A DNA stretch of 64,000 bases from Escherichia coli. Its GTDB lineage: Bacteria; Pseudomonadota; Gammaproteobacteria; Enterobacterales; Enterobacteriaceae. The stretch lies in NCBI RefSeq assembly GCF_003334815.1, contig NZ_QOWO01000001.1. One strand, given 5' to 3'. Under the pieces are notes generated by a model. The model did not search any database and was not told the origin of the DNA. It saw nothing but the letters and a program-made list of their open reading frames with translations. Numbering within the stretch: position 1 is the stretch's first letter; each line of letters begins with the position of its first letter. The translations under genes were made by a program, and so were the position numbers. This document shows positions 35,360-35,567 of the stretch, one piece after another.

Positions 35360-35567
35360 GAGTTTTACTCCCTGTTTCAACAATCATCCTATTTTGCCAT
35401 ATCAGAAAAATAACATAGCGGTATAAATCAACAATTCCATATGAAATTGCTGCTACCACCAATACAACTTTAACTGCCTTAAATCAAAAATTGTCGCAGC
35501 AAGGTTAACTAAAATCCCAGTTCGTTAACATTTTTGCGTTTTGATAGCGCAACCTTCAGGAAAAATT

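Follow-up and report, generated by a model that had tools for sequence, protein, structure and literature searches.

The intergenic region between the divergent genes ubiT and ubiU of Escherichia coli is almost certainly a compact divergent control region that combines three sigma-70 promoters with two FNR sites, F1 and F2, of which F1 activates ubiUVp and F2 activates ubiTp2, both in the class II arrangement. We analyzed this region as part of a stretch of 64,000 nucleotides (hereafter, the window). In the model that we propose, dimeric [4Fe-4S]-FNR would bind to F1 (centre 35480.5) and F2 (centre 35424.5) when O2 is absent. Each site joins a perfect TTGAT half to a weak half that retains the key G, and each lies about 41 bp upstream of a transcription start, where it overlaps the position that a -35 element would otherwise occupy. 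Activation would then proceed through direct contacts between FNR and RNA polymerase, as is typical of class II activation. At F1, FNR switches on ubiUVp, with its -10 hexamer TAAAAT, and hence the O2-independent hydroxylase UbiU-UbiV; at F2, it switches on ubiTp2, with its extended -10 element TGGCAAAAT, and hence UbiT and the downstream yhbS/hqbA. A weak third promoter, ubiTp1, maintains a basal level of UbiT in the presence of O2.

Others have shown that FNR occupies the region and that its activity depends on FNR, that mutants of F1 and F2 are no longer induced, and that the two sites are independent. FNR control of the region is already known, from ChIP since 2006 and from a dissection of the promoters in 2023. 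The locus, which provides enterobacteria with O2-independent ubiquinone, contributes to nitrate respiration, to pyrimidine synthesis, and to the shift from anaerobic to aerobic conditions (PMC10470549). What we add here, a putative -35 element of ubiTp1 within F1 and a pair of conserved GTTAAC boxes, are small additions of which we found no published mention, and they would merely refine an established model.

Layout of the ubiT-ubiUV locus

Positions 35360-35567 of the window are exactly the 208-bp gap between ubiT and ubiU, and their G+C content is 34%, versus 51% in the window. The limits of the ORFs and the RefSeq annotation of a near-identical strain give the same boundaries, so the coordinates in the first-pass annotation of this DNA cover the whole gap. 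The gene identities given there (yhbT and yhbU-yhbV as UbiT, UbiU, and UbiV) were also right: when the complete E. coli genomes were queried with 1.8 kb, 5425 out of 5426 had the locus, annotated as yhbS, ubiT, ubiU, and ubiV. In all of these 5425, identity was at least 99% over the 251 bp around the region, and over the wider 1.8 kb, it fell to 95-99% in 2844 of them. The features of the region are summarized in Table 1. The start coordinates were counted from the distances published in PMC10470549 and carry an uncertainty of 1-2 nt.

Table 1. Features of the ubiT-ubiU control region and the adjoining genes, in window coordinates.
Feature	Position	Strand	Remarks
ubiT-ubiU intergenic control region	35360-35567		208 bp; from the sequence, the ORFs, and the RefSeq annotation
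ubiT (yhbT) CDS	34835-35359	-	GTG start at 35359; first gene of the ubiT-yhbS(hqbA) operon (PMC10710024)
yhbS/hqbA CDS	34338-34841	-	7-nt overlap with the ubiT stop; Fnr co-induced
ubiU (yhbU) CDS	35568-36563	+	ATG at 35568
ubiV (yhbV) CDS	36572-37450	+	Shares an operon with ubiU (PMC10470549)
Fnr site F1, TTGATTTAAGGCAG	35474-35487	-	Centre 35480.5; activates ubiUVp; published site and mutant (PMC10470549)
Fnr site F2, TTGATTTATACCGC	35418-35431	-	Centre 35424.5; activates ubiTp2; deletion and 5-nt mutants (PMC10470549)
ubiUVp -10 hexamer, TAAAAT	35510-35515	+	First base 29.5 bp from the F1 centre (-41.5 class II geometry)
ubiUVp start, predicted	35522-35524	+	36 nt downstream of F1 (PMC10470549); G35524 if 36 nt intervene
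ubiTp2 extended -10, TGGCAAAAT	35391-35399	-	First hexamer base 28.5 bp from the F2 centre (about -40.5)
ubiTp2 start, predicted	35384	-	33 nt downstream of F2 (PMC10470549), and counting
ubiTp1 -35, TTGATT, putative	35482-35487	-	Within F1; 17-bp spacer to TATTG(G/A) in 75/76 species
ubiTp1 -10, TATTGG, putative	35459-35464	-	Weak, lacks the final T; CAATAC block conserved
ubiTp1 start, predicted	35451	-	Constitutive/aerobic (PMC10470549); limit of fusion primer Ebp192 at 35449
Box GGTTAAC	35503-35509		Directly upstream of the ubiUVp -10; 6/7 columns at least 95% conserved
Box TCGTTAACA	35522-35530		At the ubiUVp start; 7/9 columns at least 95% conserved
Third exact half-site, TTGAT	35541-35545	+	23 bp from the ubiU ATG; in leader 35531-35556, 0/26 columns conserved

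Several observations concern the strain and the neighboring genes. A K-12 origin of the window is ruled out by the presence of agaE and agaF, with agaW, agaE, and agaF intact at 12492-14591, and by a garD-to-ubiT distance that exceeds the one implied by the MG1655 coordinates (Myers 2013) by about 2.3 kb. Over 34800-36600, a single base within ubiU (A/G at 36231) distinguishes the window from strain 300709. In E. coli EEC_W5 (NZ_CM130020.1, locus L083), an IS1 with an 8-bp target duplication is inserted at the equivalent of 35442-35449, between F2 and ubiTp1/F1. It separates the constitutive ubiTp1 from ubiT, and each FNR module still adjoins its gene. The ubiT stop and the start of yhbS (hqbA), the second gene of the ubiT operon (PMC10710024), overlap by 7 nt (34835-34841), which suggests that the two genes may be translationally coupled. 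A published transcriptome study points to a possible additional start site within ubiT for the aerobic expression of HqbA (PMC10710024).

Downstream of ubiV, the gap before yhbW (37451-37530) contains a 17-nt inverted repeat, AATAGCTCACTTTGTTA (37454-37470) and TAACAAAGTGAGCTGTT (37514-37530), whose arms are 43 nt apart and which contains an inner 11-nt repeat. As RNA, it is predicted to form a long hairpin (-28.8 kcal/mol, z = -5.1), and its arms are conserved across Enterobacteriaceae. The 3' arm ends at the yhbW ATG, and the hairpin would therefore mask the ribosome-binding site of yhbW in transcripts that read through from ubiUV. No terminator-like site was found in 37451-37530. In the published transcriptome, O2 affects yhbW and ubiUV in opposite ways, with aerobic/anaerobic ratios of 6.78 for yhbW and 0.07 for yhbU. 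The Rfam elements in the window are RNase P RNA, SraG, the S15 leader, naRNA4, the rimP and greA leaders, and two tRNAs, as expected for this neighborhood (element coordinates 1985-2361, 45310-45481, 45711-45825, 47338-47408, 52107-52207, and 62894-63015).

Motif scores, conservation, and published evidence for F1 and F2

The region contains three exact FNR half-sites, ATCAA at 35427 and 35483 and TTGAT at 35541, versus 0.9 expected from dinucleotide shuffles (P = 0.053). When the consensus TTGATNNNNATCAA was searched for, no TTGAT-N4-ATCAA with two or fewer mismatches was present in 35360-35567, and across the whole window, the number of such matches was at the chance level (38 versus 33 expected). 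The two best 14-mers, F1 and F2, have three mismatches each (7 of the 10 consensus bases) and consist of a perfect half and a weak half, so the first-pass description of ATCAA-like half-sites without a clean palindrome was accurate. F1 and F2 are direct repeats (TAAATCAAnAATT): the strong half of F1 (ATCAA, 35483-35487) is promoter-proximal at ubiUVp, and that of F2 (35427-35431) is promoter-distal at ubiTp2. The third half-site was rejected as a functional element; it lies in the unconserved leader of ubiU and so is probably a chance occurrence.

We scanned the window with a symmetrised FNR position weight matrix (PWM) built from the 63 ChIP-supported sites of Myers Table S6. F1 scored 8.4 bits (ln p -8.74, p = 1.6e-4, about 0.03 matches expected per region), and F2 scored 1.2 bits (ln p -5.93, p = 2.7e-3, about 0.5 expected per region), which places F2 at rank 245 in the 64-kb window. 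Neither site reached the published cut-off of ln p -10.75, and both lie well under the 11.8-21.3 bits spanned by the training sites. The FNR peak at this position was published with a score of -8.72 (PMC3688515 Table S5), which is nearly that of F1, so the best site in that study is F1. The best matches in the window lie elsewhere, and all three score higher than F1: TTGATTTCAATCAT (23327-23340; ln p -12.06), within yraJ; TTGACATTGATCAC (6928-6941), in the garP/garD intergenic region, a 14-mer that is ChIP-bound in identical form in Myers Table S6; and TTGATAAAGATCAG (33490-33503), close to the 3' end of yhbO. In a single sequence, the FNR signal of the region is thus only marginally above chance, and it is cross-species conservation together with published experiments that makes F1 and F2 secure.

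To trace conservation, UbiU was used to scan species-representative genomes, and the 80 closest loci, all from Enterobacteriaceae, were retrieved. The intergenic regions of 77 species, including the window, were aligned, so the conservation reported here is that of one family. Columns that were at least 95% conserved made up 13 of 14 in F1, 11 of 14 in F2, all six of TAAAAT (35510-35515), and eight of nine in TGGCAAAAT (35399-35391, minus strand), compared with 0 of 22 in the linker at 35435-35456 and 0 of 26 in the ubiU leader at 35531-35556. The weak halves (CTGCC and GCGG) were as conserved as the strong ones, and in 63 of 76 species, the intergenic region had its highest PWM match at F1. 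F1, F2, and their -10 elements are nearly invariant beside a freely diverging linker.

The spacing is rigid as well. The distance from the centre of F1 to the first base of TAAAAT was 29.5 bp in every species in which TAAAAT could be located, and the distance from the centre of F2 to CAnAAT was 28.5 bp in every species in which that hexamer could be located; the distance between F1 and F2 varied from 56 to 67 bp among the aligned species. F1 and F2 are therefore two rigid class II modules (at about -41.5 and -40.5) on a flexible linker. Both a fixed spacing to the -10 element, at about -41.5, and a conserved placement of the sites in relatives were found, as class II activation implies. This geometry fits the published start sites within the 1-2 nt uncertainty of counting; if the 36 nt at ubiUVp are counted in one of the possible ways, F1 is centred at -43.5 from the mapped start and not at -41.5. 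A sigma-70 consensus scan of the region recovered none of the three real promoters, and such scanning tells little about promoters that are weak or dependent on an activator. The sole match of the sigma-70/terminator scan (35541-35569, plus strand) overlaps the ubiU start and was dismissed as being at the chance level.

The experiments on these sites are published. F1 and F2 were defined by Arias-Cartin et al. (2023; mBio, PMC10470549), who placed F1 36 nt upstream of the ubiUVp start; F2 lies between the two ubiT promoters, 19 nt downstream of the ubiTp1 start and 33 nt upstream of that of ubiTp2. When GFP fusions were compared in a Δfnr strain carrying or lacking pBAD-fnr, strong activation was seen for ubiUVp and ubiTp2 and none of this kind for ubiTp1 (PMC10470549). 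In mutants made both on reporter fusions and on the chromosome, a five-base change in F1 abolished UbiV production, and changes in F2 removed the anaerobic induction of UbiT and left its basal level intact, with the two sites acting independently of each other (PMC10470549). The mutagenic primers of that study match the window base for base.

FNR binding has been detected in three ChIP studies: by ChIP-chip, with an AlignACE motif that is F1 (PMC1802558); by ChIP-seq and ChIP-chip, with a peak from every peak caller that also appears in the earlier ChIP-chip data (PMC3688515 Table S5); and by ChIP-chip under two conditions, fermentative and nitrate, where both operons are marked "Activation" (PMC3974632 Tables S3 and S4). 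Both operons also respond to O2, with published aerobic/anaerobic transcript ratios of 0.07 for yhbU, 0.115 for yhbV, and 0.49 for yhbT, and an approximately 35-fold, Fnr-dependent anaerobic induction of UbiT (PMC10710024). The prediction from the sequence that FNR controls the shared promoter region is thus borne out by published sites, mutants, the three ChIP studies, and anaerobic induction, and two of the checks proposed for it, FNR ChIP data and a comparison of anaerobic and aerobic expression, gave positive answers.

The test that had been proposed for refuting this prediction, the absence of an FNR site above threshold, proved unsafe: the best site scores between -8.72 and -8.74 and is nevertheless bound and functional. 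Because F1 and F2 fall under the cut-off, a threshold scan gives a false negative for FNR control here. Functional and deeply conserved FNR sites can evidently lie well under PWM thresholds, and "no site above threshold" therefore cannot serve as a refutation. Sub-threshold sites of this kind are recovered cleanly when spacing and phylogenetic footprinting are used.

Elements of ubiTp1, the GTTAAC boxes, and rival accounts

The sequence suggests that the -35 element of ubiTp1 may be embedded in the strong half of F1. The corresponding -10 element is positioned as expected for the published start of ubiTp1, which lies 19 nt upstream of F2 (PMC10470549), and the variation in the length of this part of the region is confined to the ubiTp1 leader, downstream of TTGATT-17 bp-TATTG(G/A). 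Since the -35 element would lie within F1, and F2 follows the ubiTp1 start at a distance of approximately 20-33 bp, FNR should also silence ubiTp1, and a hand-over would follow in which FNR moves the transcription of ubiT from ubiTp1 to ubiTp2. The poor -10 element of ubiTp1 (TATTGG) weighs against such a hand-over. Furthermore, mutation of F1 left ubiT expression unchanged, and an aerobic assay of ubiTp1 in the F1 mutant was not apparent in that report (PMC10470549); the unchanged expression gives the idea of occlusion no support. A joint reading, in which FNR acts through this hand-over at ubiTp1 and the GTTAAC boxes are the operator of a second regulator, may be put forward only tentatively, and we regard it as rather doubtful. 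If it were true, one protein would silence the aerobic ubiTp1 while switching on ubiTp2 and ubiUVp.

Two (G/A)TTAAC boxes bracket the -10 element and the start of ubiUVp. In 66 of 74 species, the distance between them is 20 bp, and they are conserved to the same degree as the FNR sites in the 77 species. It is conceivable, if unlikely, that a second DNA-binding factor besides FNR controls ubiUVp through these boxes. The conservation and the constant distance favor such a factor, as does the fact that neither a conserved leader RNA structure nor an Rfam family accounts for the boxes. Rfam covariance models gave no match between 2361 and 45310 of the window, and the ubiU leader showed no consensus structure over 66 distinct leaders, with a z score of +0.5 for the E. 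coli fold; on these grounds, a leader RNA or riboswitch was rejected. On the other side, the boxes matched no known E. coli factor motif. To our knowledge, none of the motifs of ArcA, NarL/NarP, IscR, Fis, IHF, PdhR, Dan, TorR, and others resembles them convincingly. A search for yhbT and yhbU in Myers's H-NS and IHF peak tables returned nothing. The conservation, which comes from the alignment of one family, could moreover reflect mere contacts of RNA polymerase between -20 and +9 at an activator-dependent promoter.

It could be argued that FNR acts on ubiTp2 indirectly or that another protein acts on the TTGATTTA...GCCGC element, given that about 0.5 matches as good as F2 (ln p -5.93) are expected by chance in the region, and that its weak half (GCGGT/GCGGC) has one or two of five consensus bases and yet is conserved. 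ChIP is too coarse to resolve F2 from F1, 56 bp away, and because of this, the case for direct FNR binding to F2 is a genetic one; we found no report of in vitro footprinting of F1 or F2 in the published work on the region. Plasmid-borne fnr strongly activates a ubiTp2 fusion without F1 (35455 to 35273), and induction disappears, on plasmid and chromosome alike, when F2 is deleted or five nucleotides of its TTGAT half are changed (PMC10470549). The TTGAT half of F2 and the 28.5 bp to the -10 element, which is class II spacing, are also invariant. We therefore consider an indirect effect or another protein at F2 very unlikely.

Control by ArcA, with or in place of FNR, is still less probable as the source of the O2 response and is largely refuted. 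The region does contain a TGTTA-N6-TGATA direct repeat with one mismatch (35400-35415, minus strand), but approximately 4% of shuffles equal it, and it is conserved only in part in the 77-species alignment. Even at its best match in the region, the 15-bp ArcA box (GTTAATTAAATGTTA-like boxes) has five mismatches, the most frequent number among the shuffles, and ArcA direct repeats at 11-bp phasing were not found, the GTTAAC boxes being 20 bp apart rather than 11 or 22. When the supplement of Federowicz 2014 was searched for yhbU, yhbT, and yhbV, nothing was returned from the two ArcA ChIP-chip tables, whereas both Fnr tables list the region. On western blots of fnr and arcA mutants, deletion of arcA left the anaerobic induction of UbiT unaffected, a result that applies to UbiT (PMC10710024). 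With consensus matches at the chance level, no return for these genes from the ArcA ChIP tables, and UbiT indifferent to arcA, the suggestion of ArcA sites in the first-pass annotation remains unsupported.

The notion that the half-sites are functionless chance occurrences in AT-rich intergenic DNA, to which their marginal enrichment (P = 0.053) and the lack of any full site within two mismatches or over the PWM threshold might point, is already refuted and retains practically no probability, given that F1, F2, and their spacing to the -10 elements are near-invariant in 77 species beside a freely diverging linker and that published FNR ChIP and mutagenesis support their function.

Comparison with other FNR-controlled loci

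At class II FNR promoters such as narG, nirB, and dmsA, the FNR site is centred near -41.5, and at yfiD, it is centred at -40.5. The two modules described here resemble these promoters in that the site lies over the -35 position, no -35 hexamer is recognizable, and the spacing to the -10 element is fixed (29.5 and 28.5 bp). They differ from them in that F1 and F2 amount in effect to half-sites, each matching 7 of the 10 consensus bases and scoring well under the range of 11.8-21.3 bits. The placement of the strong half also differs between the two promoters, proximal at ubiUVp and distal at ubiTp2, as follows from the direct-repeat orientation of the sites.

Compared with the K-12 ubiT/ubiUV region (PMC10470549), the window has the same three promoters, and F1, F2, and all primer-covered stretches are identical; the control region shows no difference from the K-12 locus, although the strain behind the window is not K-12 and its aga cluster is intact. 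Beyond E. coli, the ubiUVT locus of Pseudomonas aeruginosa is controlled by Anr, and in a survey of Pseudomonadota, an FNR site was predicted at 87% of 1566 ubiTUV loci and at 96% of the divergent ones (PMC11707229). These loci are alike in that a regulator of the FNR family positively controls the O2-independent ubiquinone pathway. The other Pseudomonadota lineages differ in arrangement, because most of them carry the three genes on the same strand with one site before the first gene (PMC11707229).
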